The notes under the pieces were generated by a model. That model ran no database searches. It worked only from the letters and a program-made list of their open reading frames with translations, and was not told where the DNA came from. Made by a program: the position numbers and the translations under genes. 64,000 nucleotides of DNA, taken from positions 8,701-72,700 of the forward strand of contig JAVZDD010000001.1 in assembly GCA_038874075.1 (NCBI GenBank), in the 5' to 3' direction. Within the stretch, counting starts at the first letter, position 1; every line of letters starts with the position of its first letter. Below, piece by piece: positions 6,341-45,432 of this stretch. The stretch is from Candidatus Nanoarchaeia archaeon (GTDB lineage Archaea; Nanobdellota; Nanobdellia; Jingweiarchaeales; Jingweiarchaeaceae).

Positions 6341-6485
6341 TTTTTTGCTTTTTAAACATAACTCTCATCTAATCATCCATTTGTCCTATCCAGTTATGAT
6401 TTTATATGCGATGTTAGTTTTTAACTTTGTCGGATGATGTTCTATATACAATGAATCATACAAAGTCCTTTATCGATAACTTTTT

Positions 6486-6506
6486 TATTTCTGAGTAGTA
6501 TTATAA
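6486..6506 (+). promoter_or_regulatory. Candidate archaeal TATA/BRE region upstream of the giant ORF (possibly leaderless transcript)
   Basis: ttttttatttc / tattataat AT-rich boxes 10-35 nt upstream of the ATG at 6517 in a 176-nt intergenic gap. Confidence 0.25.
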
Positions 6507-6516: not shown

Positions 6517-9500
6517 ATGGTCAACATGAAGAGAGATAAAGCTTTTTATGTAGTGTTAGTCTTAGTTCTTTTTATATTTCTTTCCATCTCATTCACTAAT
6601 CAAATGATAGCTCAAATTCTACTTCTATTGGTTTTATCTAGTTTTATCTTCATCAGAGTCAATGTTATTCCAAACAAAAAAGCAATTTCAAGAGTGGTGC
6701 TCTATTTAATTGTGATCATTTTTTTCGTTTTCTATCAGTTTTACTTCTCAAGGCTCATTGACGTTGTTTTTGCTGCCACTGTATGGAATTTTGTTTCTCC
6801 AACACCCACAAATAATACTTGCACCACGCAAGGACCAATAAATGCAACTGTGATCGATGGAAGTCCAAGTCTATGTAAGTTGTACGTAAGCCAAAATCCA
6901 GGTTCCGGCTGGAGTATACATGAAATGAGCTTGACACTAGGCTCACCAAACTATTGTTATAACGGCACTTGGTGGCAGAGTGTTAGTAATGGGAGATGGT
7001 ATTACAAGGTCAACATGACGGATGTAAATGGAGTCTCAAGCTTTTCTAACGGTGATTATGAAAGGACATTCGTTTTAGATACTGCAAATCCATCTGTGAC
7101 AGCGAATCCAACCAAATATCCACCTGGGCAAACAAGAGCCAAGAATGGTGATAATGTCACGTTCAATGTAACTGTTATTGATTCTACGATTGCTCCTTGT
7201 GGTGTAAAAAATGTAACCGTACACTTGAGTCTTGGATTTAATTGTACTCAAGGTGAAATTTTGAATTTAATAAAATATGGTGCAACGGATTATTACGTTG
7301 GGAATTGTACTGTAGATGCAACAAATGAGGGTACATATTACCTTCCTGTATATGCATATGATAATGTTGATCACTTGAATGATAGCGTACAGGTGACAGT
7401 CTCAGTAGATTATACGCCACCAACTGTAACAATAACATCTCCCACGAACACACAATACAATACGAGTAGTATAAACCTAACATTCACTGCTAATGATAAC
7501 ATAGCGTCAACGATGACTTGTCAGAGGACTTTGGACGGAGTAACAACATTGATTGGTGCAGTAAACAATAATACTGAAAATACGACAATAATGAACCTAG
7601 AACCTGGAGTACATCAAGTAAATGTAACTTGTTGGGATGATGCTTACAACAATGGAACTTCTTCAACGATCACATTTGGGGTATGGCGTTATATTTACGC
7701 GAATGTGACGCGGAATCCGGAAGCGCCTGCAAATTTATCAAGAGTTCCTGGTTGCTCAATACCAACTTCAATTACGTGGAATGTGACAGATATAAAAGAT
7801 GAGTTTGATAACCCAATTAATGGAACTCTCTTGAATGTAACATGGCGTGGAAACACGGTATGGAATGGGAACATTTACACGTGGTGGAACAAAAGTTGGC
7901 AGAGAAGGAAACCAATCACAATTTCAAATGTTAACACCTCGGATCTAATCGATTATCAAGTCGTAATGAACATTACATATGATAATGATATGCAAAGCGA
8001 TTTTTCAGACATCAGATTTACTTGGTATAATAAAACAAGTGGTGTAGAAGTAGAAATACCATATTGGATTGAAAACAAATCTGATTCTAATTGGGTTTAT
8101 GTTTGGGTCAAAATACCTATCATTTATGCTAGTTCAAATACCACAATTTATGTTTATTATAAAAATACCACTCTCGTAAGTTCAAAAAGTAACGGTAGAG
8201 ATACATTTGATTTATTTGATGATTGGGAAAGCGGGATTGTAAACACAAGTTATTGGACTACTGGTGGTAGTGTTTCACCATATTGGATCACTCACACATC
8301 AACAAAATACCAGGGAAGCTATTCTTCTGGTAATAATGATATTGGAGATTTACAGATATCATGGATTAAAAAAAGTATTAATCTTTTGATGCCTGGAAAA
8401 TTGGAATTCTATTGGTCAGTTTCTTCAGAATCTTGCTGTGACTTCCTTTATTATTGTATAGACAATGATGGTTGTACGAGAACTTCTGGTTATATAAGTA
8501 GAATTGCTGGTACGGTGGGCTGGACATTTGTGAATTATAACTTGACAGCTGGCACCCACAGTATAAAGTTCGCGTATGAGAAAGATATAAGCGTATCCTA
8601 TGGTTCGGATACTGGGTGGATTGATTTTGTGAAAGTCAGGAAATATGTTTATCCTGAACCGACTAGTTCCATTGGGACAGAAGAGCAAATAGAAAATTTA
8701 AATCTTTTACCACTAAGTGGGGTGTTTGATATTCCCAATGATAACGTTCTTGGAGAAAGTGATGATTTCTTAAACATTACGATCACAAAACCATATTACT
8801 TTGCTTACACAAACAATTCTTCTGATTATCATATACAGGGCGTCCTGAATCAAAGTGGTTCGTTGATCTCATGGACACCAAGTGGAAGTGCAATAGATAA
8901 TTTTGAACCTTCTATTGAAGGAGGACCATCAGTCAGTGCTAGTTATTTGATAAGGGATGATTTGAGTGTAACCTTAACAGAAAATACACATTATATAAAA
9001 ACAAATTATGGAGATTGGAATGCAAGTGATAATAATGCTGGTGATACAATTATACCGAATACCACATTTACTGGTATAAATAATTACTGTGGTACTGTCA
9101 CGTTCTCAAAGAGCTATCTCGTGCATGGAAAGATAAGTGATATATCCAGCATTATCTGGTCTCCTTCTGGGAATAATATAGATAGATTTTATGGTGGAAG
9201 TTATGGTGGTCCAGATGTAAGCTATGGTAGCTTGGTAGTGATTGACAATAAAGGTAATGTGGTAGCACCAACGAATTACTCAGAAAATAAAATTGGAGAT
9301 TGGAATGCAAGTGATAATAATGCTGGTGATGTGATAATATCAAATTTAAATATCACATCAAAGCTCGATGCTGGTAGTTGTGGTACATTAAATTGTTATT
9401 GGCACGGTTATGTGAATCAAACAAAGAGCTATACTGTCTGGGCAAATTTAACAATTAAGAGTGTGGCACCGCCAAATGCTACAATTGTCTATAGATCAAA

Positions 9501-12500
9501 TTGTAATACGCCTTATAATGTAACTTTAAGAGTAAACTTAACTGATGATAAGGGTAACTTGGTTTCGGGAGCGAATACAATTATATATCATCCAAGTGGT
9601 ACATGCAGCGTGAATGATGAGAATAATGGATATTATAATTGTACCTATGATCCAAGCGATACGATAGTGCCTGGGCTCTATACATGGACAGCAGAGGCAA
9701 GTAAAAATTATTATTATAATACTGGTAATGCAACACTTTTGTATTTGGAAATCAGAGGTTGTTCTAACATTAACATTACCCAGCCATTAAATACTTCTTC
9801 CTTTAATCGATCACAAACAATGGATATTAAGGTTAACATAACGGATGAATTCAATCAACCAGTAAGCGATGTAGGCGTTACTTGTGAGCTCACAAAAGCA
9901 AATGGGGTGAAAGTTTATCCAAATTGTATTTACAATCTTTCATCATATCTTTGGGAAGCTAATTACACATTTGCAAATGATGATCCGGTTGGAATTTGGT
10001 ATTTGAAAGTGAATGTAAGTGGAAGTTATTCTTACGCTGAGAAAATATACGAAATCACTTTGTTCGGAAAGTTGAATGTTACAAGTGTCTTAACAAAAGA
10101 TAAAGTAGATAGGGGTTCTGATTGGGGGTATGGTACGATAGCATTGTTGAATGCAAGTATCAATGATGAGAGTGGCCCAGTAAGTGATGTATATGTAAAA
10201 TTTTATGCAAATGATAATTTCATTGGTGAAAACACGACAGATAGTAGTGGAATTGCAAGATTGTACTGGGATCCAGATGATAATTTAAATGTGGGTGCAT
10301 ACAAGATCGAGGTGGAAGCGTACAAGACTTATTATTATAATGATACAAGTAAAAGTTTGAACAATTATACAGATGTTTATGGCAAGTTATTTGTCAGAAA
10401 TGTTTCATCACCGGTAAATGTTGATAGAAAAAATAATTATGGTTATGGTACAATTGCGATTCTTGAGGTAAATGTGAGTGATGATTTATATGTTCCAATA
10501 AATGCATCAACAGTAGAATTTTACATTAATACTAGTGTTGTGGGAACAAACACAAGTGGTGTGAATGGATATTATAAATATAACTGGGATCCAGATAACA
10601 ATCTAAATCCTGGAATTTATGTTTTCTATGCAAATGCAAGAGATGTGCAATACTATCACAATTATACAGATACTGTACCTAATAGTACAATTACTGTTTG
10701 GGGTAAATTAAACATTACTTCTTTCGGATTTACTGATAAAGAAATTTACAGGATTGGAGAATCAACAGTTCTAAGCGTAAATGTGAGTGATGAAAATGAT
10801 GTTGCTGTAAATAATGCAATAGTTTCATTCGTAAGAGATTCAAGTATCATAAATGTGACCAACACTACAAATGGTTATGCAAGTTACACTTATGATCCAA
10901 GCGATACGATAACGCCAAACAACTATACTATGTATGTAAATGTGAGCAAGCAGTACTATTACAATGATTCAAAGCAAGATTGGCTTTTAATAAAAGGCAA
11001 GATAAATTTAACTATCATTTCGCCAAACACAGGTCAGAAGTTCTATAGAAATAATACAGTACAATTAAATTCAAATGTGACAGATGAAAATAATGTTGAA
11101 GTCTCTCCTGATTGGTCTGAATGGAAGAAGATATTTCCCACGCAAGAAGTGATTTCAAATCAACCCGATTATGATTGGAATATTCCATACAACTATCCAA
11201 AAGGATTGCTTTCAATACAATTTAATGCAACTAAAATGTACTATGATATTGTAGGTGCAATTCCAAGTGTTGACATTACAATATGGTCTAAAGCAAATGT
11301 CACAATATTAAACTCTCCTCAAGATTTGAATAGGGGAAACAATATAACAATTGTTGCAAGGGTTTCAGATCATTTCACGAATGAGAACTTGGGTGGTTAC
11401 GATATTGGTTGGTTTGTGAATGATGTTAATATAGCAAATTACACAACTGCCCCTGATGGAACTTCTTCTTATTATTGGATAACGAATTGTTCATATGATG
11501 TTGGTGTGAATTGGATAAATGCTACGATTGGAAATGATACAAGTAATTACATTGATGCTAACATAGCAAACAGTAAAATAGATATCCACTTAATTGGAAA
11601 CCTATCCACATCAATCATTTCACCTCATCTGGATTCACTCTACCATATAAATGATGTAATACAATTAAATTCAAGTACAATTGATGATTGTAACAATTAT
11701 GTCATACCAGTTGTTACATGGAGAAATGAAACAGATGTCATTCAAAGTGGTATAAATGCGACATGGACGATTCCGTTGACCTACAATAAGGGACCAACAA
11801 ATATCACTATTTATGCGAATAAAAGTTATTATTATAATGCAACAAATTCGACACGGATAATCATATATCGCTGGGTAAACATCACGGACTTAAACCCAAT
11901 AAATGTTACTTATCCTGTTGGAACAATCATAAACTTTACATGTTTTGTTAGAGATGCAAATCTTTCACTAGGAATCGAGAATTATCCTGTAAACTTCTAT
12001 AAAAATGGAGTACTTCAGAATGTTAGTTATACAAATACAAGTGGTCTCGCACTTTGGATATGGAACACAACGAATGAACTAAGTAACAATTACACAATAA
12101 AATGTAATATTACGGACAATGCAACGCTTTATTTAAATAAGAGCCACCCATATGAGCAGCAAGGTAATATCACGATTGAAAGAAGATTGTGGATTATAAA
12201 CATCTCAGTTGATAACAGAACGATTTATAGAAATGATACTTGGGCAATATTAAACAATCTACCATATGCCACAAATATTACGGTCGAGGTCTGGGATGCG
12301 GCAATAAATCCTGCTTCAAATGTAATCGTACATTTCTTCAATTCGACAAATGAAATGGGTAATTGTACTACAAATTCAGATGGTAAGTGCAGTGTCATAT
12401 TTAATCCACCTGATACAATCATTGTACAAAATTACACAATTTTAATTAATGCAACAAAGATAGGTAATGATCCATCTTTCACTGAAAATACAACAATTGA

Positions 12501-15500
12501 AATATTGGGTGTCTTAAGGATAAATGCGAGTAATTACCCAACAGGGTTGGATGTAAATTATGAAAATGAGACGATAGAGGCAACGATAGAGCATGATATT
12601 TTAATTACAGATGTGATTTTGAACATTACACTCCCAAATAGTACTGTTATCTCTTCCCAAATGCAATCAATGGGAAATAATAATTATGTATTAAATTATA
12701 CACCTAAAATAAATGGTACGCATTCTTACTTTGTTTATGCGATTGACGCATCTAACTTTTTGAATCAAAGTTCAACCGCTTATTTCACTGCTTATAGAAA
12801 TACAACACTTTCGACAAAGCATGCACCACAATTGATCACGATCACGAACATGACATACTTTAATACTCAGCAATTACAAGTAAGTTTGAATGTAACTAAC
12901 CTGGGCCCATCAAGTGCTTATTACACAAACCTAAGTGTACAAACACCAAGTGGTTGGATCTCTAATTACAATGGTAATTGTGGTTTAATAAAAGATGGAG
13001 AATCATGCCTAAGAACTGTTGATATTACAGTACCTTCAAATACTTCACCCGGTATTTATTATCTAAATTCAAATACAACATGGATGAATCCTGATAATAC
13101 ATATAGTTACATTACGAATGTTACAACAGTGAATGTAACTTCAAATCCATTGTTAAACATCTCACAGAATAGTATTGGGGTTGTTGTCCAGCACAATTCT
13201 TATAATATAACAATATTCACAGTTCAATCAATAGGCAATGACAATTTAAGTAACATTCAGTTTGATTGTTATACTGGAATTGTTTGTACAAATTTTAGTG
13301 TCTCTTTCTCACCTTCAAGTATTAGCTTTCTAGGAAGAGGAAATTCACAAGATGTAAATGTAAATGTAAGTGTGCCGCTTGGATTTGCAATGGGTAATTA
13401 TACTGGAATTATAAGGGCGAATGCGACAAGTAGTGTTTGTAATCCAAGTAGTAATTGTTGGGATGAAGTGGAGATAAATATAGAAGTACCACCATCATCG
13501 ACTTGGTATGCTGAAGAGAAGAACTTTTCATTAGCAAGAGTAAATACATCATCTACTGGATTTATTGGTAATATAACAATAAACAATACTGGAAACACAC
13601 CAATACAATTCACATGGGAAGCTTATGGAAACATTTCTTACATGCTCATCGGTGAAAATATCACAGTAGAAAATCAAACTGTAAAAAACATGACAATTAG
13701 TTATTCCATACCCCATACCCTAAACGATACAAACAATACACCAGCATTCTACGCTGGTGGAATAAGGATCATTGCAATAAATGGAGTTCCACAATCGATG
13801 AATTTCTCTGTTAACTTTAGCGTTTATGATACGTTTGCACCAAACATAAACAACTTTAGCTTAGATTCAAATTTCATTGATATAAATTATGGTGTACTTG
13901 GCATTACAGCAAATGTGACAGATAACGTTAAAGTACAATCTGTGTACGTGGAATTTAGTAGACCTGGGAAAAAGTTTAGCAATTTGATGACAAATGTATA
14001 CGATGACATTTATTACTATTCTTGTAAAGCAGATGGAAGTTGTATCGATGCACTTGGAATATGGAACATAAAAATTTCGACATTTGATACTGCAAATAAT
14101 CCTGAAAATCCACCCCCAGGCTATAATGTGAACAGTAGTGGGTATTTACAAGTAGAAGTTGTTGGAAATACAAGTGTAGATATCCTAACAATCCCTGTAA
14201 TAAATGTATCAAATATAACACAAGGTTACGTTTATGAGTTTAATATAACTCCAATATTCAACAACACATTCAAGGGAACTGCATTTTATTCAAATTTGTC
14301 ATTGAATATTAGTTACCCACTCACAATTGATAATGTAAGTACAAAAACAATTAATTTTGGTAATGTTTCAAGATACAGTGCAGTAAATCAGACACTTCTA
14401 GTAAAAATACCGTCTGGAACAGTACCTGGAACTTATCTAATTAACTACAACGCTAGTTGGATGAATGCAGATAATACTCATAATTCAAACATAAACCAAA
14501 CAACAATAAATGTGCTATCAAATCCATTACTGAATATCGTCGAAGATTATATTTTGACTACAATTGCACATGGTTCTTCTAATGCAACGACCTTCAATCT
14601 AAGTTCATATGGTAATGACAATTTAAGTAACATTGAGATAACATGTGTTTCAGGCACTGTATGTACCAATCCTTGCTTTGATGTTCTGTTTGATAAAAAT
14701 TACTTAAACTTGAGCGCTGGAAACAGTTCAATTGTTACAGTAAGTGTGAATGTGGGTTTGGGATGCAGTCCTGGTAATTATACTGGAATTATAAGGGCGA
14801 ATGCGACGAGTAGTGTTTGTAATCCAAGTAGTAATTGTTGGGATGAAGTGGAGATAAATGTAAGTGTCTTAACTTCACCAACATGGGGAATAACACCAAA
14901 TTACCTTTCTCAGATTGTTTATGATAACTCAAGTGGTAATTTAATTGACATATTGGTAAACAATACTGGTAATGTACAAATTAATTTATCAATCACACTT
15001 TCTGGTAATGCAACGACGCCAACACAATTAATTAATGTCACAGAAACAGATGTAAGCGTAGATAAGGTAAGTACAAAAAATGTGACGGTTACTTATGATA
15101 TTCCCAACAATCAAATACCGGGCATATATCAAGCAATTATAACCTTCACAAATACATCTTCTCCAGCAAATCCAACACAAGTAAACGTCACAATTTATAT
15201 TGATGTGAGGGATCCGTATTCTCCTACAATTTCAAATCCGAACCTATCAAAAACAGCACTTGAGGCAAACTTCGAATCTCTTACAATAAATGCAACCATT
15301 ACTGATAATGTTGCAATCTCAGAAGCTTGGGTAAATATCACATTACCAAATATGAGCAATAATATTATTTTTATGAACAATATTGGAGATAATCTATACA
15401 GCACTACATACAAACCACCAATTGGTGGAAGTTACGGTGTAACAATTTATGCAAATGATACATCAAATAACATTGCTTCTATGTATGCAGGCTCGTTTAA

Positions 15501-18500
15501 TGTAATTGGTAAAACAACTGGTAATTTGAAACAAACACCAACGAGTATTAGTTTTAACAACATCACGTACTTACAAGGAGCTCAATTTGATGTTCACTTG
15601 AATATCACGAATGTTGGGAATACAACAATGCGCTACTTGAACCTGACAGTTTTGGTACCTCAAGATGAATATGACTGTGAGAATGGGAAATGCAAGTGGA
15701 ACTTCACATGTAGTGGTCTTAATTGTAATGGCAGTGGAATAAGCTGTGGTAATTTAACGATAAATGAAAGTTGTGATGGTAATTTTACAATATTTGTACC
15801 AAAAGGTACAAGCGGTGGTACTACAAATAATATATTCGGAGCCGCATTTTGGCTCGATCCAGATCTTACAATTGGAAACACAACCAATTATACATCTGTG
15901 ACAGTTGCATCGAATCCTGTTATCAATGTCACCCCATTGGTGGTTAGTAACAGTATTGAACAAGGAAAAATAAGTGTGCTTGGTTCAATTAATATTAGCT
16001 CATATGGTAATTCACCACTTTATACAATGAATTATACAAGTGTTGGGGGAAATTTACCTTATGCTTGGTTATCATTCGCACCAGAGATCGTAAATATACC
16101 TGTTGGTGTAAGAAGAAATTTAGACATAAGTGTAAGTGTTCCCTTTGGTCAAAATCCTGGTATCTACAACACGACACTCATTGTAAACGCAACTGGTTCC
16201 GCCCCATTCTGTGATCCAAGTTCAAGTTATTACAATCCTAATAGTAAGTGTTGGGAATTTGTGAATTTGAGTTTAAATGTACCTGAAAATTGGTCCTGGA
16301 GCAGGTATCCAAGCTCAGATTACATCATTGTTCCAATCACCACGAGTGGACAAATAAACATCACGGTAAACAATACTGGAAACATGGATATTAACTTTGA
16401 AGTTCAATACAGTGGTGATACTTCAATACTTGATCCATTCAGACCAACTTCTTTATTTTCACCGAAGCAAAGCAGTAACTTATTACAAGTGGGTTACAAT
16501 GGTACGATTTCAGGACTTTATAATGTGTTAATAAAATTGGTGAATCTATCCATCCCTTCACCATATCCAAAAGAGCAAACAACAAATATCACATTGAATG
16601 TAACAAATGTTCCTCCTAATATCCAAAATGTGAGTATTGCACCTAGTATCTTGGATGTGAATTATCAAAAAGTGAACATAAGTGCTGTGGTGACGCACCC
16701 AGCATCAAGTGTATATGTCTGGGCTAATATAACAAAACCAGACAATTCAATCACAACAATTCCAATGTCTGGTGTTGGAAATACTTACAGTGCTACCTAC
16801 ACACCGGAACAGGAAGGGATGTATGGTGTTACAATTTATGCGAATGAAAGTAGGGATGGTCTAATGAGTTCTTCTGGAATATATAATTTCTTAGCGTTTG
16901 CGACCACATCACTTGAACTCATTTCGATTCCAAACGAAACAGCAGTTTACAAGATAACACAGTACGATGGAAACATCACAAACTTGAACATTACAGTAAG
17001 AAATACGGGTATGGCAACTGCATACAATACTGTAGTCTCATTACAAGCTCCTCAAGGTTGGACTTTAATTCCAACAATGATAAATTACGGAAATATCACA
17101 AGAAATTCTGCAAATTCAACAATTGTAACAATTACGATACCTAAAGGTACACCACCCGGTAATTATTATGTGAATTTAAATTTGAGCTGGATGAATCCAA
17201 ATAATGTTGTTTCAACTGTCACTTCAAATGTAAGATTTGAAGTTGCACAAAATCCGTTCGCTAACTTTACAACAAAGGAAGCGAGTTCAGTAACATTGGA
17301 TGGGTACTCGAATTATACTATATTAACCTTAAATTCAACGGGTAACATAGATGCAACTGACATTTCAATTTCATGCGTATCTGGACCATGTTCAAATTTG
17401 AGTACCACGATTTCGCCTCCATTTATCTCTTATCTTGCAATTGGAAATACAAGAGATATAAATATAAGCTTCAGCGTTCCAGTTGGATATCCAGCTGGAA
17501 CTCATGTGATTGGTATAAACGCATTCACTCCTATCAACTCAGATGCTGCGAATATCTCGATCACCGTACCACCAAATTACTCATGGAATAGGACACCTAG
17601 TTCTATATTTGCAAGGGTTGGGGTGAGTGAAAACTACACAACGACTGAAATCGGGAGGATAGAGGTAGATAACCTAGGAAACATTGAAATGTTCTTTAAT
17701 ATAACAATCGATAACTCAACATACATCTATCCGAATGTAACGGTCTTGCAAGTACCTAGACAATCAAAGGGTGTTGTTGGTGTGAGGACAGTCGTACCGT
17801 CTGAAAGAGGAACGCACAATGCAACAATTACGATTATAAACAACCTGACAAAAGAGGAAATGAATACAACCGTGAATCTGGAAGTAACAGAACTTAGGGT
17901 GAATGTGATAAGTCCAATTTCAAATGAACTTAGGCCTGTGAAGTTGAATGATACGCTGGAAGTTTTTGCGAATGTAACTTATCAAGGAGTACCATTAACA
18001 GATGGTGTGAATTGGACGATTGAGTTGAGCAATGCAATATATGGTATTACGAAGCAATGTGATGTAAATAACGCAACTTATCAAACAGACCGTTGGAGAA
18101 TTACATGTATAATTCCTGAGACAAGAGATGCAACTTTATATGATTTGGTTGTAAGCGCATATGCATATGATCCATCAATCAACACGATTTCATCAAGTAC
18201 AAGAACAAATGCAATATTTTATGAAGATATCACACCACCCAAATTTGTTGGCGTAAACATCAGTTCTGTGCAACCAAATGAAATTGCTGTTATTAAAGTG
18301 AATGTAACTGATAACGTTGCTGTTTCAGATGCTTGGGTAGAAATAATGTATCCAAATTACAGTACTACAAGTGCAAATCTCACTTATATTGAAAATTTGT
18401 GGCAAATGAGTTTTAATGACACATCACAGATAGGAGATTATGAACTAAAAATCTACGCAAAAGATAATTCGAATAATCTGAATCAAACATATAGTTGGTT

Positions 18501-21105
18501 TGGTTCGTACTACCCGATGAGATTTTATGGGGAAGCGAAGGATGTCGCTGGCAATCCTTATTACATCGAATTTAATTTCTACAGACCTGGAAAAACAGAT
18601 CTACTTTTCAATGTCACAAGCAATCAAACAGGAATCTATGATAAGAACATTAGTGCTAGATTGTATGATATTGAAGTAAAAGCATTTGGAAATAAAATTA
18701 AGTTATATGGTACCAATCTGACAAAGTTCAACAATAGTGGTCTATACTCACCTTTAATATTGGATGATATTGCTGGTGCTTATATTGGCTATGGTGCACT
18801 TAGAGGATTATATGTTGATATAATAAACACAATTTATTACGTTAGTGGTAGTTTAATGATCGATTTTGCTGGAATACCCATCCATTCAATAAATTGGGTT
18901 GGAGTGTATAAGTGTAATAGCTTTGATAGATACAACAAAAAATGTAATCCTAGCGGTAATATTACAAATCCTTGGAATAGGATTGGTGGAGCAATCATTG
19001 GATATACAGCAAATATAAACTTGAGCTCATTTTCAGCATACGCTGCTGCTGAATATATTTGTGGAAATGGAATTTGTGAAAGTGGTACTGGTGAGAGTAG
19101 TGCAAATTGTCCAATTGATTGTCCAACCGAAGTTCCAACACCACCAGGTGGTGGTCCTGGAGCACCGGTGATACCAACACCAACAGTAAATCTAACAAAC
19201 ATCACAGAGGCACTTGTCAATATCACAGAGAAGATTGAGGAACTTATACCAATTCCATCAATGACTGTGATCACAAAATCAATATATGTTGTTTTGTATC
19301 CTGGTGAATATAAAATAGAGTCGATTGATATCACAAACAATTTGAATAGGAAGATAAAAGTAAATATTTCAGTCGAAGGTGCTGCATGGGAATTTGTACA
19401 ATTCGAGAAAACTGAATTCGAAATTGATCCGAGAAGAATTGAGACGATTAATATAAAATTGTATGCATTACCAACTGCACTACCTGGCATTTACACAGGT
19501 AAACTAATTGTTAAAACTGAAAACTTGACAAGCATCATTCCAATTACAATAAAAGTTGAGCTCGCAAGGGAAGCACTTCTTGATATCAAAATTGAGACAA
19601 TAACAAAGGTAATTAAACCAGACGAGCCACTACAATACCGTGTATCATTGTATAATATGGGTACTACAAAGAAGGTGGATGTAACGATAAATTACTCGAT
19701 TAGAAGTATTGAATTTAATAGAACAATATTGAGTCAGCAGGAAACACTAGCGATAGAGACTTCGCTCTCATTCAGAAGATCAATAAAACTACCAAACGAC
19801 ACAAAGCCTGGCAAATTCATCATAGAAGCAGTCGCGTATTATGACAATAGAACTGCAAGTTCCATCGACACATTTGATATTGCTGTAACTCCGTTCGTCG
19901 TTAATATATTCTGGCAGATTTTCACATCACCCTTCACTTATGCAATCATTGCAATTGTCATTGCGATTTATTATGGCAGAAAGTACTATTTGATGTGGCT
20001 CGCAAAGAAGAAGGCAGCAGCTAGATACATCTTCCCTGTTAGCTTCAATAAATTACCAAAGGCAGGTAGAAGATCCATACTCGTTGGTAAAATTGCTGAA
20101 ACAGAATATCCTGCTTATTTTGACATAGACAACCTGACAATGCACGTTGTAGATGCTGGAGGTACTGGTGCTGGAAAATCAGTTTCAGGAATGATAATTG
20201 CTGAAGAACTGTTGAAGAAGGGCATTCCTGTAATCGTATTTGATCCAACACTGCAATGGACTGGTTTTATAAAACCTTGTAGAGATAAGAAGATGCTGGA
20301 GAAATATCCAAAATTTGGATTAAAAACGAGTGATGCGAGGGCATTTCCAACGAACATAATTGTAGTCACAGACCCTGAGATGGATATTAACATAAAGGAA
20401 ATTGCAGCCAGGAAAGGTGAAATAACGGTGTTTTGTTTGAGTAAGCTCACGCCTGAGCAGTTGGATAAATTTGTAAGAAGGACGATAGATGCAATATTTG
20501 ATGTTAGTTGGAGTGAATCAAAGGAATTGAGATTATTAGTTGTTTACGATGAGGTGCATAGATTACTGCCGAAATACGGTGGAAAGGGTGGTTACACCGC
20601 GCTTGAGAGGGGATGTAGAGAATTTAGGAAATGGGGAATTGGATTGTTCATGATATCGCAGGTATTGATGGACTTTAGAGGAGCGATAAGGGCAAACATT
20701 GGGACGGAGATACAGCTAAGGACGAAATACGAAGGTGATATTGGAAGAGTGAAACAGAAATATGGTCCAGAGTATTCAGCAACACTTCCAAAATTAAGAA
20801 TAGGTAGTGCAATGGTGCAGAATCCGGATTACAACGATGGTAAACCTTATTTCATTGAATTTAGACCATTATTACATGATACATTCAGGATAACAAATGA
20901 AGAATTAGAAACGTATAAGAAATTACAAGAATCAATTAGTGAAATAGAGAAAAAAATTAAAGATTTGAAGGATAAAAAGATAGATACATATGATATAGAG
21001 ATAGAATTGGGACTTGCAAAAGAAAAATTGAAACAAGGTTTGACACATATGGCCGAAACTTATATTGAATCGATGAAAGAAAAATTAAAGCGTTTGGAGA
21101 AGTGA
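6517..21105 (+). CDS. Giant (4862 aa) glycosylation-sequon-rich surface protein. It has an N-terminal triple-TM anchor, a DUF2341/LamG-like head, tandem repeat modules, a penultimate TM helix and a C-terminal cytoplasmic HerA/FtsK-type (DUF87) ATPase domain with a coiled-coil tail
   Basis: Uninterrupted 14.6 kb ORF in an AT-rich genome where stop codons are frequent by chance; consistent codon usage; very high density of N-x-S/T sequons; repeated domain architecture; motif details listed in the sub-features below. Confidence 0.85.
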   Translation: MVNMKRDKAFYVVLVLVLFIFLSISFTNQMIAQILLLLVLSSFIFIRVNVIPNKKAISRVVLYLIVIIFFVFYQFYFSRLIDVVFAATVWNFVSPTPTNNTCTTQGPINATVIDGSPSLCKLYVSQNPGSGWSIHEMSLTLGSPNYCYNGTWWQSVSNGRWYYKVNMTDVNGVSSFSNGDYERTFVLDTANPSVTANPTKYPPGQTRAKNGDNVTFNVTVIDSTIAPCGVKNVTVHLSLGFNCTQGEILNLIKYGATDYYVGNCTVDATNEGTYYLPVYAYDNVDHLNDSVQVTVSVDYTPPTVTITSPTNTQYNTSSINLTFTANDNIASTMTCQRTLDGVTTLIGAVNNNTENTTIMNLEPGVHQVNVTCWDDAYNNGTSSTITFGVWRYIYANVTRNPEAPANLSRVPGCSIPTSITWNVTDIKDEFDNPINGTLLNVTWRGNTVWNGNIYTWWNKSWQRRKPITISNVNTSDLIDYQVVMNITYDNDMQSDFSDIRFTWYNKTSGVEVEIPYWIENKSDSNWVYVWVKIPIIYASSNTTIYVYYKNTTLVSSKSNGRDTFDLFDDWESGIVNTSYWTTGGSVSPYWITHTSTKYQGSYSSGNNDIGDLQISWIKKSINLLMPGKLEFYWSVSSESCCDFLYYCIDNDGCTRTSGYISRIAGTVGWTFVNYNLTAGTHSIKFAYEKDISVSYGSDTGWIDFVKVRKYVYPEPTSSIGTEEQIENLNLLPLSGVFDIPNDNVLGESDDFLNITITKPYYFAYTNNSSDYHIQGVLNQSGSLISWTPSGSAIDNFEPSIEGGPSVSASYLIRDDLSVTLTENTHYIKTNYGDWNASDNNAGDTIIPNTTFTGINNYCGTVTFSKSYLVHGKISDISSIIWSPSGNNIDRFYGGSYGGPDVSYGSLVVIDNKGNVVAPTNYSENKIGDWNASDNNAGDVIISNLNITSKLDAGSCGTLNCYWHGYVNQTKSYTVWANLTIKSVAPPNATIVYRSNCNTPYNVTLRVNLTDDKGNLVSGANTIIYHPSGTCSVNDENNGYYNCTYDPSDTIVPGLYTWTAEASKNYYYNTGNATLLYLEIRGCSNINITQPLNTSSFNRSQTMDIKVNITDEFNQPVSDVGVTCELTKANGVKVYPNCIYNLSSYLWEANYTFANDDPVGIWYLKVNVSGSYSYAEKIYEITLFGKLNVTSVLTKDKVDRGSDWGYGTIALLNASINDESGPVSDVYVKFYANDNFIGENTTDSSGIARLYWDPDDNLNVGAYKIEVEAYKTYYYNDTSKSLNNYTDVYGKLFVRNVSSPVNVDRKNNYGYGTIAILEVNVSDDLYVPINASTVEFYINTSVVGTNTSGVNGYYKYNWDPDNNLNPGIYVFYANARDVQYYHNYTDTVPNSTITVWGKLNITSFGFTDKEIYRIGESTVLSVNVSDENDVAVNNAIVSFVRDSSIINVTNTTNGYASYTYDPSDTITPNNYTMYVNVSKQYYYNDSKQDWLLIKGKINLTIISPNTGQKFYRNNTVQLNSNVTDENNVEVSPDWSEWKKIFPTQEVISNQPDYDWNIPYNYPKGLLSIQFNATKMYYDIVGAIPSVDITIWSKANVTILNSPQDLNRGNNITIVARVSDHFTNENLGGYDIGWFVNDVNIANYTTAPDGTSSYYWITNCSYDVGVNWINATIGNDTSNYIDANIANSKIDIHLIGNLSTSIISPHLDSLYHINDVIQLNSSTIDDCNNYVIPVVTWRNETDVIQSGINATWTIPLTYNKGPTNITIYANKSYYYNATNSTRIIIYRWVNITDLNPINVTYPVGTIINFTCFVRDANLSLGIENYPVNFYKNGVLQNVSYTNTSGLALWIWNTTNELSNNYTIKCNITDNATLYLNKSHPYEQQGNITIERRLWIINISVDNRTIYRNDTWAILNNLPYATNITVEVWDAAINPASNVIVHFFNSTNEMGNCTTNSDGKCSVIFNPPDTIIVQNYTILINATKIGNDPSFTENTTIEILGVLRINASNYPTGLDVNYENETIEATIEHDILITDVILNITLPNSTVISSQMQSMGNNNYVLNYTPKINGTHSYFVYAIDASNFLNQSSTAYFTAYRNTTLSTKHAPQLITITNMTYFNTQQLQVSLNVTNLGPSSAYYTNLSVQTPSGWISNYNGNCGLIKDGESCLRTVDITVPSNTSPGIYYLNSNTTWMNPDNTYSYITNVTTVNVTSNPLLNISQNSIGVVVQHNSYNITIFTVQSIGNDNLSNIQFDCYTGIVCTNFSVSFSPSSISFLGRGNSQDVNVNVSVPLGFAMGNYTGIIRANATSSVCNPSSNCWDEVEINIEVPPSSTWYAEEKNFSLARVNTSSTGFIGNITINNTGNTPIQFTWEAYGNISYMLIGENITVENQTVKNMTISYSIPHTLNDTNNTPAFYAGGIRIIAINGVPQSMNFSVNFSVYDTFAPNINNFSLDSNFIDINYGVLGITANVTDNVKVQSVYVEFSRPGKKFSNLMTNVYDDIYYYSCKADGSCIDALGIWNIKISTFDTANNPENPPPGYNVNSSGYLQVEVVGNTSVDILTIPVINVSNITQGYVYEFNITPIFNNTFKGTAFYSNLSLNISYPLTIDNVSTKTINFGNVSRYSAVNQTLLVKIPSGTVPGTYLINYNASWMNADNTHNSNINQTTINVLSNPLLNIVEDYILTTIAHGSSNATTFNLSSYGNDNLSNIEITCVSGTVCTNPCFDVLFDKNYLNLSAGNSSIVTVSVNVGLGCSPGNYTGIIRANATSSVCNPSSNCWDEVEINVSVLTSPTWGITPNYLSQIVYDNSSGNLIDILVNNTGNVQINLSITLSGNATTPTQLINVTETDVSVDKVSTKNVTVTYDIPNNQIPGIYQAIITFTNTSSPANPTQVNVTIYIDVRDPYSPTISNPNLSKTALEANFESLTINATITDNVAISEAWVNITLPNMSNNIIFMNNIGDNLYSTTYKPPIGGSYGVTIYANDTSNNIASMYAGSFNVIGKTTGNLKQTPTSISFNNITYLQGAQFDVHLNITNVGNTTMRYLNLTVLVPQDEYDCENGKCKWNFTCSGLNCNGSGISCGNLTINESCDGNFTIFVPKGTSGGTTNNIFGAAFWLDPDLTIGNTTNYTSVTVASNPVINVTPLVVSNSIEQGKISVLGSINISSYGNSPLYTMNYTSVGGNLPYAWLSFAPEIVNIPVGVRRNLDISVSVPFGQNPGIYNTTLIVNATGSAPFCDPSSSYYNPNSKCWEFVNLSLNVPENWSWSRYPSSDYIIVPITTSGQINITVNNTGNMDINFEVQYSGDTSILDPFRPTSLFSPKQSSNLLQVGYNGTISGLYNVLIKLVNLSIPSPYPKEQTTNITLNVTNVPPNIQNVSIAPSILDVNYQKVNISAVVTHPASSVYVWANITKPDNSITTIPMSGVGNTYSATYTPEQEGMYGVTIYANESRDGLMSSSGIYNFLAFATTSLELISIPNETAVYKITQYDGNITNLNITVRNTGMATAYNTVVSLQAPQGWTLIPTMINYGNITRNSANSTIVTITIPKGTPPGNYYVNLNLSWMNPNNVVSTVTSNVRFEVAQNPFANFTTKEASSVTLDGYSNYTILTLNSTGNIDATDISISCVSGPCSNLSTTISPPFISYLAIGNTRDINISFSVPVGYPAGTHVIGINAFTPINSDAANISITVPPNYSWNRTPSSIFARVGVSENYTTTEIGRIEVDNLGNIEMFFNITIDNSTYIYPNVTVLQVPRQSKGVVGVRTVVPSERGTHNATITIINNLTKEEMNTTVNLEVTELRVNVISPISNELRPVKLNDTLEVFANVTYQGVPLTDGVNWTIELSNAIYGITKQCDVNNATYQTDRWRITCIIPETRDATLYDLVVSAYAYDPSINTISSSTRTNAIFYEDITPPKFVGVNISSVQPNEIAVIKVNVTDNVAVSDAWVEIMYPNYSTTSANLTYIENLWQMSFNDTSQIGDYELKIYAKDNSNNLNQTYSWFGSYYPMRFYGEAKDVAGNPYYIEFNFYRPGKTDLLFNVTSNQTGIYDKNISARLYDIEVKAFGNKIKLYGTNLTKFNNSGLYSPLILDDIAGAYIGYGALRGLYVDIINTIYYVSGSLMIDFAGIPIHSINWVGVYKCNSFDRYNKKCNPSGNITNPWNRIGGAIIGYTANINLSSFSAYAAAEYICGNGICESGTGESSANCPIDCPTEVPTPPGGGPGAPVIPTPTVNLTNITEALVNITEKIEELIPIPSMTVITKSIYVVLYPGEYKIESIDITNNLNRKIKVNISVEGAAWEFVQFEKTEFEIDPRRIETINIKLYALPTALPGIYTGKLIVKTENLTSIIPITIKVELAREALLDIKIETITKVIKPDEPLQYRVSLYNMGTTKKVDVTINYSIRSIEFNRTILSQQETLAIETSLSFRRSIKLPNDTKPGKFIIEAVAYYDNRTASSIDTFDIAVTPFVVNIFWQIFTSPFTYAIIAIVIAIYYGRKYYLMWLAKKKAAARYIFPVSFNKLPKAGRRSILVGKIAETEYPAYFDIDNLTMHVVDAGGTGAGKSVSGMIIAEELLKKGIPVIVFDPTLQWTGFIKPCRDKKMLEKYPKFGLKTSDARAFPTNIIVVTDPEMDINIKEIAARKGEITVFCLSKLTPEQLDKFVRRTIDAIFDVSWSESKELRLLVVYDEVHRLLPKYGGKGGYTALERGCREFRKWGIGLFMISQVLMDFRGAIRANIGTEIQLRTKYEGDIGRVKQKYGPEYSATLPKLRIGSAMVQNPDYNDGKPYFIEFRPLLHDTFRITNEELETYKKLQESISEIEKKIKDLKDKKIDTYDIEIELGLAKEKLKQGLTHMAETYIESMKEKLKRLEK
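6544..6780 (+). other. N-terminal triple transmembrane anchor of the giant protein
   Basis: Three hydrophobic helices (FYVVLVLVLFIFLSISF; IAQILLLLVLSSFIFI; VVLYLIVIIFFVFYQFYF) separated by short basic loops; positive-inside rule places the following ~4400 aa outside. Confidence 0.6.
7870..8660 (+). other. DUF2341-like domain followed by LamG/concanavalin-like domain
   Basis: WWNKSWQRRKPITISN...DFSDIRFTWYNKTSGVEVEIPYWIENKSDSNWVYVWVKIPIIYASSNTTIYVYYKN matches the W-W-x-YR...DIRF...YWIE...VWVK...YVYYGN signature of DUF2341; the following ~150 aa has the LamG-like pattern usually paired with it. Confidence 0.55.
13393..13479 (+). repeat. 87-bp near-identical direct repeat, copy 1 (in-frame, encodes GNYTGIIRANATSSVCNPSSNCWDEVEIN)
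   Basis: ggtaattatactggaattataagggcgaatgcgacaagtagtgtttgtaatccaagtagtaattgttgggatgaagtggagataaat recurs at 14773 with one mismatch. Confidence 0.9.
14773..14859 (+). repeat. 87-bp near-identical direct repeat, copy 2
   Basis: One mismatch (acaag vs acgag) relative to 13393-13479; flanking sequence diverged. Confidence 0.9.
19061..19135 (+). other. Cys-rich knot module (CGNGICESGTGESSANCPIDCP) followed by a Pro/Gly/Thr linker
   Basis: Pattern C-G-N-G-x-C-E-x-G-x-x-E-x-x-x-x-C-P-x-D-C; the same pattern occurs three times in the Cys-rich protein at 54130-55269. Confidence 0.5.
19921..19980 (+). other. Penultimate transmembrane helix separating the extracellular region from the cytoplasmic ATPase domain
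   Basis: FTSPFTYAIIAIVIAIYYG followed by basic RKYYLMWLAKKKAAAR (positive-inside). Confidence 0.7.
20020..20880 (+). other. Cytoplasmic HerA/FtsK-superfamily P-loop ATPase domain (DUF87/AAA-like, related to VirB4/TrbE/CedB-type ATPases)
   Basis: Walker A VDAGGTGAGKS (20155-20181) followed by GIPVIVFDPTLQW; Walker B LLVVYDEVHRLLP (20534-20560); EFRKWGIGLFMISQ (the EGRK-G...SQ motif of DUF87); terminal PYFIEFRP beta-strand pattern. Confidence 0.8.
20881..21102 (+). other. C-terminal coiled-coil tail of the giant protein
   Basis: Heptad-like K/E-rich sequence NEELETYKKLQESISEIEKKIKDLKDKK...KEKLKRLEK. Confidence 0.5.
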
Positions 21106-21110: not shown

Positions 21111-22532
21111 ATGGAATTAAATTTACCTTTTTTGAAGAGGGAGGAAAAGGGAGAAAGCGAAGAGGAGAAAAGGAAAGATAGGGATAATAATAAAAAGGAG
21201 GAGGAAAAGAAGAAGAAATTGACTGAAGCAAAGACTGTGGGTGAGATGGCTGCAATCTTGCAGGAAATTCCAGTGGAAGATGAGGAAGTGAAAGAGGAAG
21301 AGAAAAGGGAAGAAAAAGCTGGCATAGAAATTGATCCAAAGCAATTGTTTATAGAAATTGAAAAAATGAAGGTTGAGATTGATGGAATAAAAGAAGATAA
21401 GACAAGAATTGAGGAAAAAATTGATAGATTCGTTGAGAGTATTGGTGAGCTTAGAAGTCTGTTATCACAAAGGGAAGTGTCATTCAAGGAACAGGAAATA
21501 AAGCTCAATAAATTAGTTGAAATTGTGGGTGAAATAGACCCAACAAAGTATGGCGTAGAGCTAAAAAAAATTGAAAAGGATGTTTCTATTCTACAAGCAA
21601 GAATAGAAAAATTGGAAAGAATAAGTGTTGATTTAGTTAAAGACTTACAATCGCTACGGGATATCTTGGATAAAGTGAAGGACATCTCTACTATAATGGG
21701 AATGAATAGGGAATTAAGTGAAAAATTAGCGAAGATTGAGGATATTGGAAGTAAAGTGGAAAGAGATACAAATAAAGTTGAAAAAATGTACGCTGAAATT
21801 GATAAAAAAATTATGGATATACCGATGCTAAAAGAAAAAAATGAGAAGTTGGATGGACTTTTAAAGGAGCTTTTGATGAGTGTTGATGAAATTAAAATCA
21901 GATTAGATGCTTGTATAAGTAAAGATGACCTTGATTCATTAAGAGAAAGTATGAGGGAAGAAACGAGAGTACAAGTCGAAGATTTAAGGAAAGAGATTGA
22001 GGAAATGAAAATATCAAAACCTGTCGAAGAAAAAATCGAAGAGATTAAGAAATTTCCAAGTGAAAGTGAGATCGAGGAATTAAAGAGGGAGAGGGAAGAA
22101 ATAATCAGGTTTTTGAGCGCGCTTGAAGATGAATACAGGGAAGCCACAATCTCTGAGAAGAGTTATCAAGAAGCAAAAGAAAAAAACACGGTAAGATTGC
22201 ATCAAATTGAAAAGAGATTGAAGGAAATAAAGGAGATGGAAGAACAGATGGAAATTGAGAAGCAAATATTTACTGCGAAAAAAGCAATTGATGAGATAAA
22301 TCGGGTGAGTGAAGAGTTAAATAAGAAACTTACTGATATTGAGAAAAAATTAACAAGTGTTGATTTACTTGTATCTGACATCCAGAACATTAAAAATAAA
22401 TTAACGCAGTTGGAGGAAAGCGATAAAAAAATTATAAGTGATAGCACAGCATTATCAAATCAATTTAATCAAATAAAATCGATCTTTGAAAAAAGACTAA
22501 AAGAAATGTCAAAAATTGTGGAAGAGTTATAG
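21111..22532 (+). CDS. Long coiled-coil protein (E/K-rich), immediately downstream of the giant gene
   Basis: ~474 aa dominated by heptad-like E/K/L/I repeats, no TM; ATG at 21111 preferred over GTG at 21102 that overlaps the giant gene's stop. Confidence 0.6.
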   Translation: MELNLPFLKREEKGESEEEKRKDRDNNKKEEEKKKKLTEAKTVGEMAAILQEIPVEDEEVKEEEKREEKAGIEIDPKQLFIEIEKMKVEIDGIKEDKTRIEEKIDRFVESIGELRSLLSQREVSFKEQEIKLNKLVEIVGEIDPTKYGVELKKIEKDVSILQARIEKLERISVDLVKDLQSLRDILDKVKDISTIMGMNRELSEKLAKIEDIGSKVERDTNKVEKMYAEIDKKIMDIPMLKEKNEKLDGLLKELLMSVDEIKIRLDACISKDDLDSLRESMREETRVQVEDLRKEIEEMKISKPVEEKIEEIKKFPSESEIEELKREREEIIRFLSALEDEYREATISEKSYQEAKEKNTVRLHQIEKRLKEIKEMEEQMEIEKQIFTAKKAIDEINRVSEELNKKLTDIEKKLTSVDLLVSDIQNIKNKLTQLEESDKKIISDSTALSNQFNQIKSIFEKRLKEMSKIVEEL

Positions 22533-27693: not shown

Positions 27694-28404
27694 ATGGTAA
27701 GGATAATAGGTGTGATATCTGGTAAGGGTGGAGTTGGTAAGACAACGGTCGTTGCTAATCTTGGACTAGCGCTTACTACAAAATTCAATAAAGAAGTGAT
27801 AATCATCGATTGTAACATTACAACATCTCATTTGGGTCTATACTTTGGTTTACATAGCGTGACAACGACATTAAACAATGTATTAAGGGGAGAAGCGATC
27901 ATTGAGGATGCAATTTATATGCATGAAAGTGGATTAAAAATCGTTCCTGCCTCTTTGGCAGCACATGATTTGATTGGTGTTGACATCATCATGCTTGAAA
28001 AAACATTGGAAAGATTATTCGGAAAGGCTGATTTTGTATTATTGGATTCTGCGCCTGGTCTTGGTAGGGAGGCATATGGTACAATAATTGCGAGCAAAGA
28101 AGTAATAATGGTCACGATTCCATATTCACCAGCAATAATTGATTTAATCAGATGTAATCAAGTGATCAAGGAGCTTGGTCCAAGGGCCCTTGGCATCGTA
28201 TTGAACATGGTCACTAGGGACAGATATGAGCTAACGGAGGAGGAAGTAAGTAATATCGTTGGGTTACCTGTGATCGGATCGATACCATATGATAAAAACA
28301 TACTGAAATCCCTTGCATTGAGAACACCTTTACTTAACTATAAACCAAAATCTAGAGCAAGTAAAGAGTTCATAAAACTTGCGAATAGGATTTTAGAACT
28401 ATAA
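27694..28404 (+). CDS. minD: MinD/ParA-family (SIMIBI) ATPase
   Basis: Deviant Walker A GKGGVGKTT near the N-terminus (MVRIIGVISGKGGVGKTTVVANLG), Walker B FVLLDSAPG; ATG at 27694 has a GGTGA Shine-Dalgarno-like motif 7 nt upstream, and the in-frame extension to 27652 overlaps the upstream gene. Confidence 0.85.
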   Translation: MVRIIGVISGKGGVGKTTVVANLGLALTTKFNKEVIIIDCNITTSHLGLYFGLHSVTTTLNNVLRGEAIIEDAIYMHESGLKIVPASLAAHDLIGVDIIMLEKTLERLFGKADFVLLDSAPGLGREAYGTIIASKEVIMVTIPYSPAIIDLIRCNQVIKELGPRALGIVLNMVTRDRYELTEEEVSNIVGLPVIGSIPYDKNILKSLALRTPLLNYKPKSRASKEFIKLANRILEL

Positions 28405-45429: not shown

Positions 45430-45432
45430 AAT

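Follow-up and report, generated by a model that had tools for sequence, protein, structure and literature searches.

A giant gene on the plus strand (6517..21105, ATG start) was found in a 64,000-nucleotide stretch of DNA (hereafter the window) from a Candidatus Nanoarchaeia archaeon (GCA_038874075.1, contig JAVZDD010000001.1, positions 8,701 to 72,700 of the forward strand), and sequence comparison established that its product, a protein of 4862 amino acids (aa) and 539 kDa before glycosylation, is a member of the SPEARE family. By sequence, the protein consists of a conserved membrane-proximal base and a variable, lineage-specific distal tip; it ends in a predicted cytoplasmic HerA-type ATPase, and its gene heads a four-gene module that recurs in related loci. 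DPANN archaea are attached to other archaea and take most of their building blocks from them. SPEARE-type proteins, which make up several percent of their tiny genomes, are among the few family-specific candidates for the host interface. The base, the HerA-type ATPase and the recurring partners give a testable parts list for a contact machinery and no new principle; what goes beyond the known SPEARE architecture, namely the partner genes, a wider taxonomic range and an unusual N-terminus, is a modest addition.

The giant open reading frame (ORF) runs without an internal stop across 4862 codons. Calculated from the base composition of the window (65% A+T), a codon is a stop with a probability of 0.073, open runs average 14 codons, and the chance of 4862 open codons is ~1e-160. 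The gene is intact on the NCBI contig JAPDLG010000005.1, which agrees with the window at 100% identity over 25 kb, and it is annotated as a 4833-aa protein starting at Met30 in the NCBI metagenome-assembled genome (MAG) GCA_025920725.1. It is a real gene, as an earlier note on this DNA had claimed. It is also chromosomal; the G+C content around it is even, and the neighbours include housekeeping genes such as those for Kae1, S15, S3Ae and CysRS.

An artefact, in which two or more genes were joined by mis-assembly of repeats or the annotation is in error, was considered as well. The short-read, MAG-derived assembly and the internally repetitive gene speak for it, as does the fact that one independent Logan contig terminates in the 3′ part of the gene. 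However, the intact copy on the NCBI MAG contig argues against it, and the largest internal DNA repeat detected is only 114 nt at 89% identity. The protein from aa ~970 to the end finds matches in proteins of 4.6–4.8 kaa (thousand aa) from other lineages, and its C-terminal ~2000–2400 aa align to these giants as a single collinear high-scoring segment pair (HSP) with ~38% identity. Giant fusions are, moreover, the norm in the family (see below), and such an open frame is not expected by chance. As judged from these sequence data an assembly chimera is very unlikely, and an artefact of either kind is highly improbable. The Logan contig in question, SRR27170999_2743 (locus L005), stops within the giant gene at window position 20740, 365 nt 5′ of the stop codon, and matches the window at 100% identity from there on downstream; its end inside the gene suggests an assembly break in that data set.

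Family membership and the ATPase tail

Nanohaloarchaeal SPEAREs were described as very long, mostly extracytoplasmic proteins with a transmembrane (TM) segment toward the C-terminus, and proteomics showed that a member of the family is expressed as protein (Hamm 2019, PNAS, PMC6642349). Re-analysis gave the part order signal peptide, ~75 immunoglobulin (Ig)-like domains, TM segment, VirB4/TraG-like ATPase and terminal coiled coil; protease and endonuclease assignments were rejected and a 'straw' resembling a type IV secretion system (T4SS) was proposed (Reva 2023, Front Microbiol, PMC10266531). Named SPEAREs are NAR1_1133 of Ca. Nanohaloarchaeum antarcticus, the SG9 proteins, SVXNc_0300 and BNXNv_0298 (PMC6642349, PMC10266531).

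Comparison of the last ~600 aa of the giant protein with the C-terminus of SVXNc_0300 (Ca. Nanohalococcus occultus) showed 36.5% identity over 603 aa (E 4e-122), and a second HSP was found in the membrane-proximal ectodomain. AQV86_02330 of Nanohaloarchaea archaeon SG9, which is among the SG9 SPEARE genes of Hamm 2019 (PMC6642349), matched with 43% identity over 431 aa (E 2e-123), and a 7878-aa cluster representative, whose cluster includes a Nanohaloarchaea member, with 36% over ~600 aa (E 1e-122). The homology (36–43%, E ~1e-122) extends over two juxtamembrane β-sandwiches, the TM helix, the ATPase and the coiled coil. The likeness to SPEAREs also includes the same order of parts, a giant Ig-like ectodomain, a P-loop tail that gives the weak secondary matches to ResIII and VirD4 seen there too, and a downstream gene for a coiled-coil protein. 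The weak ResIII match on the ATPase (17 bits against a cut-off of 22.5), from which the label 'restriction enzyme' arose, recurs here. The architecture, which the earlier note set apart from the usual S-layer or adhesin type, is not an unrecognised one; that of the family has been known since 2019, and the re-analysis of 2023 arrived at the same part order.

The Pfam scans of the giant protein revealed no protease or nuclease family, only the weak ResIII match. This does not exclude SPEARE membership, because the same was found in the founding members (Reva 2023, PMC10266531). The protein differs from the described SPEAREs in its source organism, which belongs to a non-halophilic hot-spring lineage related to Parvarchaeales, in having three N-terminal hydrophobic segments instead of one signal peptide, and in a tip with DUF2341 and an unassigned domain instead of WD40/PQQ propellers or a 'toxin-like' region. 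It also lacks the adjacent ATPase paralogue of ~625 aa, its neighbours being a 1712-aa NEW3 protein and MinD. In Ca. Nanohalococcus, a paralogue of 623 aa comes right after the giant, which has 9409 aa. Halomucin, the giants of Omnitrophota and of the candidate phyla radiation (CPR), and Ig-repeat adhesins are alike in size, tandem β-sandwiches, and a presumed role in cell–cell contact in small-celled or episymbiotic organisms. They are set apart by description, as we know of none with a C-terminal TM helix and a cytoplasmic ring ATPase.

The tail after the TM helix comprises 373 aa and is basic, with an isoelectric point (pI) of 9.25. A HerA/FtsK-superfamily P-loop ATPase domain (20014..20886, plus strand, aa ~4500–4790) is followed by a predicted C-terminal cytoplasmic coiled coil (20884..21102, plus strand, aa ~4790–4862), which is helical in the AlphaFold2 (AF2) model and kept in relatives. 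The domain contains a Walker A motif, GGTGAGKS (20158–20181, plus strand, aa 4548), lying only ~60 aa from the TM helix, a Walker B motif, LLVVYDE (20533–20553, plus strand, aa 4673), and at aa 4701–4715, in the arginine finger/sensor region, a REFRKWGIG...SQ block (in full REFRKWGIGLFMISQ) that aligns with REGRKFGVG...SQR of S. solfataricus HerA. The Walker A, Walker B and REFRKWG...SQ residues were invariant in an alignment of 17 family sequences (A1).

The Pfam scan showed that DUF87, the central HerA domain, scored 44.7 bits against a cut-off of 23.2 and that HerA_C was also above its cut-off. FtsK_SpoIIIE (PF01580, 14.5 bits against 24) and T4SS-DNA_transf (16.6 against 20.1) were sub-threshold, as was ResIII. 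A PDB sequence search with the tail returned HerA matches (best E 2e-9), of which the best was the HerA of the SIR2/HerA antiphage complex. The AF2 monomer of the last 482 aa, with a predicted local distance difference test score (pLDDT) of 84.5, consists of a β-sandwich, a long TM helix, a RecA-like core and a C-terminal helical coiled coil. When it was compared with the PDB by Foldseek, hexameric HerA translocases ranked at the top (4d2i), followed by TcpA (rank 16), FtsK (rank 38) and VirB4 (rank 48), and the probability was 1.00 for HerA, FtsK, VirB4 and TcpA. Because DUF87 and HerA_C exceed their cut-offs, the modelled core is RecA-like and HerA comes first in Foldseek, the tail is assigned, by sequence and model, to the HerA clade of the FtsK–HerA superfamily, with its catalytic residues intact. 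These results bear out the earlier suggestion that the cytoplasmic end is enzymatic.

The likeness to HerA–NurA of S. solfataricus (4D2I) comprises the best sequence and fold match, the Walker A and B motifs and the R-E-x-R-K-x-G-x-G...S-Q block. However, the giant protein has a TM helix in the place of the HAS barrel of that HerA, and its ATPase is predicted to be membrane-anchored; NurA, Mre11 and Rad50 were not found among the neighbours of the giant gene, and the NCBIfam HerA equivalog models gave only 20–32 bits against cut-offs of 800–970. The FtsK/SpoIIIE/TraB pumps and the T4SS-type ATPases TcpA, VirD4/TraG and VirB4 belong to the same superfamily, have TM segments N-terminal to a cytoplasmic ring ATPase, and act at cell–cell or septal membranes to move DNA or protein, but none bears an ectodomain of several thousand residues. 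Where FtsK would be expected to have a γ (winged helix-turn-helix) domain, the AF2 model of the giant protein ends in a coiled coil. The N-terminal CagE/TrbE domain of VirB4 was not among the Pfam hits, TraC scored 21 bits against 567, and no VirB6/8/9/10-type channel part, pilin or effector was present among the neighbouring genes. The Ced system of Crenarchaeota is similar in employing archaeal membrane-associated HerA/VirB4-like ATPases in intercellular DNA transfer, but CedB (25 bits against 700) and CedD (41 against 600) matched over little more than the N-terminal P-loop segment, and no hit to a CedA-like membrane partner was obtained among the neighbours. Canonical T4SS, Ced, FtsK and HerA–NurA assignments thus fail on sub-threshold scores and on partners that were not found.

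Ectodomain, topology and N-terminal end

Hydrophobic segments were located by a Kyte–Doolittle scan, and the topology was derived from hydropathy, the positive-inside rule and composition. The result showed segments at aa ~9–27, 30–48 and 60–78 (6541..6750, plus strand) and at aa 4466–4486 (TM helix 4; 19912..19974, plus strand), with none in between. The last of these, for which AF2 models a helix at aa ~4472–4501, is followed by the K/R-rich stretch GRKYYLMWLAKKKAAAR; K/R-rich flanks were also found before segment 1 (MKRDK) and between segments 2 and 3 (RVNVIPNKKAISR). According to the positive-inside rule, these flanks would make both the N-terminus and the final 373 aa cytoplasmic, and the intervening ~4375 aa (6772..19896, plus strand) extracellular. 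The predicted ectodomain has a pI of 4.6, 60 Cys, 12.2% Asn and 256 N-x-S/T sequons, compared to 100±8 in shuffles, whereas the tail has 2.1% Asn, one sequon and a pI of 9.25. This asymmetry agrees with the predicted N-in/ectodomain-out/C-in arrangement. The single C-proximal TM helix described earlier was thus recovered, and the sequon-rich extracellular bulk described with it holds as a prediction.

Translation from ATG 6517 or 6526 yields three N-terminal segments, and from ATG 6604 (Met30, the NCBI call) two. TATA-like A/T-rich boxes read from the sequence (TTTTTTATT and ATTATAA; 6481..6506, plus strand) lie 10–36 nt upstream of ATG 6517 and an in-frame TAA lies immediately 5′ of it; both are compatible with a leaderless or short-leader archaeal transcript from this ATG. 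After the third segment comes VFA|AT, in agreement with the −3/−1 rule and compatible with a possible signal-peptidase site. GTG 6694 and GTG 6697 were considered as candidate starts that would give a single signal peptide; neither has a charged n-region or a recognisable upstream motif. Among the 57 relatives of at least 1500 aa with a Met start, 40 show a single N-terminal hydrophobic segment, which is of the signal-peptide type; 17 lack such a segment, and two or more were seen in none. This finding and the cleavage-type motif VFA|AT make an N-terminal anchor doubtful. Of the claim that the protein is held in the membrane at both ends, the three N-terminal segments were therefore seen, and the anchoring itself is a possibility. 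Even if true, a double anchor would be a peculiarity of the lineage and not the essence of the system. A SPEARE of 12,127 aa with TM helices at both ends has been reported in a mud-volcano study (PMC8470020).

Domains of the ectodomain were sought with Pfam and NCBIfam on tiles, and repeats by BLAST of tiles against the protein. The distal part contains a DUF2341 domain (7999..8262, plus strand, aa 495–582; Pfam 57.6/62.8 bits against a cut-off of 23.4), followed by a β-rich domain without family assignment (aa ~590–745). Self-comparison and Pfam delimit ~10 tandem repeats of ~100 aa of the Ig-like/MG2/Big_7 β-sandwich type (9394..12456, plus strand, aa ~960–1980), across which Big_7, MG2, Big_3_5 and MG4 matched; Filamin-like matches were also obtained in the giant protein. 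Four to five super-repeats of ~460 aa follow (12454..18360, plus strand, aa ~1980–3950), each with NEW3/NPCBM_assoc (CARDB-like) domains; the copies are diverged. Toward the membrane lie a Cys-rich motif (CGNGICESGTGESSANCPIDC) with a Pro/Gly-rich linker (19057..19191, plus strand, aa 4181–4225), present in the short and giant relatives inspected by sequence reading, and the juxtamembrane β-sandwich pair (19234..19896, plus strand, aa ~4240–4460). Taken together, the ectodomain comprises roughly 40 β-sandwich modules of Ig-like, MG2-like, NEW3 and DUF2341 type.

The juxtamembrane pair was found in 77 of the 80 related loci analysed (see below), and it is present in the short forms of ~725 aa and in nanohaloarchaeal SPEAREs. 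Across these loci the identity is ~60% in the ATPase and 28–35% in the ectodomain. Apart from one short Ig-like match, the first ~970 aa have no counterpart in the six giant relatives compared. The greater conservation of the ATPase and the largely unmatched first ~970 aa are the basis of the division into a conserved base and a variable tip.

Partner genes and distribution of the family

Three genes follow the giant gene on the same strand. The first (21111..22532) encodes a 473-aa coiled-coil protein, predicted to be cytoplasmic, in which no TM segment and no P-loop was found. Its ATG 21111 lies 5 nt after the giant stop codon, is preceded by GGAG/GGTGA-like bases and agrees with the public call of 473 aa, and is the likelier start compared with GTG 21102; the mechanical ORF begins at the latter and overlaps the stop codon of the giant gene. 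The second (22542..27680) encodes a further predicted surface protein, of 1712 aa, with a signal peptide, a DUF2341-like start, a NEW3/MG2 ectodomain with 95 sequons, a TM segment at aa 1611–1629 and a cytoplasmic coiled-coil tail of ~80 aa. This protein exactly matches NEW3 domain proteins of Ca. Jingweiarchaeum tengchongense (MCW1296998.1 and others), and the window is assigned to that organism on this basis. The third (27694..28404) encodes a 236-aa ATPase of the archaeal MinD type (TIGR01969 minD_arch, 212.6 bits against a trusted cut-off of 201.75).

The same order was seen in a short-form operon on an Aenigmatarchaeota-type contig, which encodes proteins of 722, 527 and 306 aa and MinD, and the last ~305 aa of the 1712-aa protein match the 306-aa protein of that operon. 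Synteny was counted in the 62 related loci with at least 4 kb of downstream sequence. The results showed the coiled-coil gene in 60, a large NEW3 protein in 43 and MinD within 10 kb in 25 of them. A coiled-coil homologue is also present downstream of SVXNc_0300/0299 (24% identity, E 3e-14). By sequence comparison, the giant ATPase protein, the coiled-coil protein, the TM-anchored NEW3 protein and the archaeal MinD form a conserved module that recurs in related loci. In published work, where the giant protein alone is discussed, mainly in Nanohaloarchaeota, we found no description of conserved partners or of short/giant paralogue pairs, and the 'dark matter' paper of Makarova 2014 contains no specific description of the module.

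A scan of species-representative genomes confirmed 507 related stretches, of which the best 80 loci were analysed. Their record titles name MAGs of Aenigmat-, Micr-, Woese-, Pace-, Parv-, Nano-, Nanohal- and Altiarchaeota. In most of them the ATPase ORF is open across the entire 10-kb upstream flank (at least 3800 aa). When 1.84 billion representatives were searched exhaustively, 376 clusters matched at E≤1e-30; length statistics were taken on the best 145 with a Walker A motif, of which 34 reach at least 3000 aa and 16 at least 4500 aa, with a maximum of 7878 aa. Nearly all long representatives carry the ATPase C-terminally. The open upstream flanks and the long representatives indicate that the giant fusion is the family norm and not an oddity of the Jingweiarchaeum genome. 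In ~11 of the 145 representatives (P0188, P0189, P0192, P0201, P0224 and others) the ATPase is central or near the N-terminus, with at least 600 residues after it; these may correspond to the 'reversed' arrangement of one SG9 protein of Hamm 2019.

The short forms of ~725 aa consist of a signal peptide, the Cys motif, the linker, the two β-sandwiches, the TM segment, the ATPase and the coiled coil. Two MAGs encode a pair of paralogues, a short one of ~725 aa and a giant one of at least 3500 aa, with a separate coiled-coil gene downstream of each (L034/L053 in ERP108616_co1_335 and L041/L048 in binchicken_co189_409). SPEARE-type relatives were found in Jingweiarchaeum, in Haiyanarchaeum and in MAGs labelled Parvarchaeota and Nanoarchaeota. 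Hamm 2019 reported no SPEARE homologues in Parvarchaeales (PMC6642349), and the paper on Ca. Jingweiarchaeum tengchongense, a DPANN relative of Parvarchaeales from hot springs, mentions neither the giant protein nor HerA (PMC10134863). On sequence evidence, the range of the family is extended to hot-spring lineages related to Parvarchaeales, beyond the distribution of 2019.

Two other nearby genes were considered as partners and rejected. A homologue of the divergent AAA_22/ExeA-like (XrtA-associated ATPase-like) P-loop gene on the minus strand (5516..6340) lies near just one of the 80 loci, so this gene is probably unrelated to the giant gene. The 363-aa all-coiled-coil gene, also on the minus strand (28399..29490), has a homologue near none of them. 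The latter gene is convergent with the MinD gene, overlaps its end and gives weak SMC, Rad50 and archaea-specific SMC-related matches.

Functional readings and other genes in the window

Members of the FtsK–HerA superfamily are hexameric ATP-driven translocases of DNA or protein. For the giant protein we infer adhesion together with ATP-driven translocation at host contacts, and by analogy with these relatives we regard an adhesin joined to such a translocase, as a general reading, as rather probable. The ATPase tails would form a hexameric ring beneath the membrane, as in HerA, FtsK and VirB4, and the hexamer would hold six ectodomains together as a long, glycosylated fibre or sleeve, with a reach of ~100–200 nm as a rough estimate, not computed, from ~40 β-sandwich modules per chain. 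The variable tip would bind the host cell surface, and at the contact the ATP-driven ring would carry a polymer across the membrane of the symbiont, either DNA (its own or that of the host) or protein effectors. The coiled-coil partners may scaffold the complex, and MinD may position or assemble it at a membrane site. The nearest relatives that have been characterised translocate DNA, which would therefore be a likelier cargo than protein. Since the tail is a HerA/FtsK-superfamily ring-ATPase domain, the description given in the earlier note, an extracellular fibre or adhesin coupled to a cytoplasmic motor, is fair as far as the architecture goes, with an ATPase tail past the TM helix; the mechanical coupling that it implies is a deduction.

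Several points weigh against a SPEARE-type adhesin that works as a translocase. The hexamer of a membrane-tethered ATPase and its cargo are extrapolated from the superfamily, and the topology is taken from hydropathy, the positive-inside rule and composition alone. It is not obvious that six single TM helices arranged as a ring make a channel; a polytopic channel subunit was not seen among the products of the module, and T4SS, Ced and NurA partners were not detected among the neighbours. At least one laminin-G (ConA-like lectin) domain is a SPEARE trait in Hamm 2019 (PMC6642349), and LamG gave no match in the Pfam/NCBIfam tiles or the PDB sequence search; the AF2 model of aa 480–760 (15-sequence alignment) has a pLDDT below 50 beyond DUF2341. 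In addition, ectodomain peptides and TM/cytoplasmic peptides occurred in different size fractions (Hamm 2019, PMC6642349), which suggests that the two parts may be separated after synthesis and would weaken a direct mechanical link.

The T4SS-like 'straw', in which a VirB4/TraG-type secretion ATPase injects effectors into the host with the Ig-like fibre as conduit, was proposed for the homologous SVXNc_0300 and BNXNv_0298 (PMC10266531). VirB4 and TcpA are indeed among the Foldseek matches (ranks 48 and 16), a weak T4SS-DNA_transf match was obtained, and the module includes a MinD/ParA-type ATPase. A ParA-like protein, VirC1, works with the Agrobacterium T4SS. However, the tail is closer to HerA than to VirB4 or VirD4 in both sequence and fold, T4SS-DNA_transf stays below its cut-off, and neither the N-terminal CagE/TrbE/VirB domain among the Pfam hits nor a VirB6/8/9/10-like component, pilin or effector gene among the neighbours was found. 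To our knowledge, strings of Ig-like domains do not form conduits, and we consider the straw improbable. One specific version of the adhesin–translocase reading is a membrane-anchored HerA/FtsK-type pump that takes up host DNA as a source of nucleotides, or exchanges it between cells, while the ectodomain only docks the partner cell, with CedB, FtsK/SpoIIIE and TraB as analogues. The closest characterised relatives are translocases of double-stranded DNA (HerA 4d2i, HerA–NurA with DNA, FtsK and TcpA), the tail is basic (pI 9.25), weak NCBIfam matches to CedD and CedB exist, DPANN archaea need host building blocks (PMC10134863), and DNA handling by the tail was also proposed by Hamm 2019 (PMC6642349). 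Nevertheless, the CedB and CedD scores (25 and 41 bits) are far under their cut-offs of 700 and 600, and a CedA-like channel, an FtsK γ domain and a nuclease are missing, so that a DNA pump in this narrow form is unlikely.

Alternatively, the protein could be mainly structural, an envelope or adhesin protein whose ATPase, with MinD and the coiled-coil partners, serves the export, assembly, turnover or positioning of its own ectodomain and moves no cargo. The short forms of ~725 aa, which have only the juxtamembrane base and the ATPase and keep the same partners, imply that the conserved unit is the base, the ATPase, the coiled-coil protein and MinD, and not the fibre. The glycoprotein-like composition also resembles that of S-layer proteins, and MinD-type ATPases position envelope machines in archaea. 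On the other hand, we know of no HerA/FtsK ATPase that acts solely as an assembly chaperone for its own N-terminal domain, and the strength with which the catalytic motifs are conserved in the DPANN members examined points to an enzymatic role that persists; the structural reading appears to us to have a low probability. Still further from the data is a defence or mobile-element module. HerA-type ATPases are hubs of Sir2–HerA and DUF4297–HerA systems and of conjugative elements, the best PDB sequence match is the HerA of the SIR2/HerA antiphage complex, partial PADLOC HerA matches were seen, and ParA/MinD genes are common on plasmids. But Sir2, DUF4297, nuclease, integrase and relaxase genes were not found in the flanks, the neighbours are housekeeping genes with even G+C content, the same gene order recurs in related loci, and a membrane anchor with a 4375-aa ectodomain has no parallel in HerA defence systems. 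Such a module is extremely unlikely here. Searches of PADLOC and PHROGs for defence or virus functions gave just partial HerA or terminase-like P-loop matches, and these readings were dropped.

Within the adhesin–translocase reading, the four-gene unit, with either a short or a giant ATPase protein, might be one ancient apparatus, wide in DPANN, that builds the host bridge and pumps DNA or other polymers; we hold this extension to be doubtful and put it forward tentatively. If it were true, the unit would be a secretion or uptake system unrelated in composition to T4SS, Ced and type IV filament systems, the tips of the giant ectodomains would set the range of hosts, and the N-terminal TM hairpin, specific to this lineage, would add a further membrane element.

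Elsewhere in the window, a second giant ORF of 2781 aa on the minus strand (55326..63671) gave Big_13, Big_3_2 and InhA-like MAM matches, and no ATPase domain was detected in it; it probably encodes a further large surface protein of this organism. Close by, on the plus strand (52194..54023), lies the gene for a 609-aa DUF2207 membrane protein. On the minus strand (42545..46488), genes for a B12-binding radical SAM protein (551 aa), an amidohydrolase (413 aa) and a radical SAM-SPASM protein (350 aa) lie adjacent to each other and are possibly a cluster for peptide or cofactor maturation.

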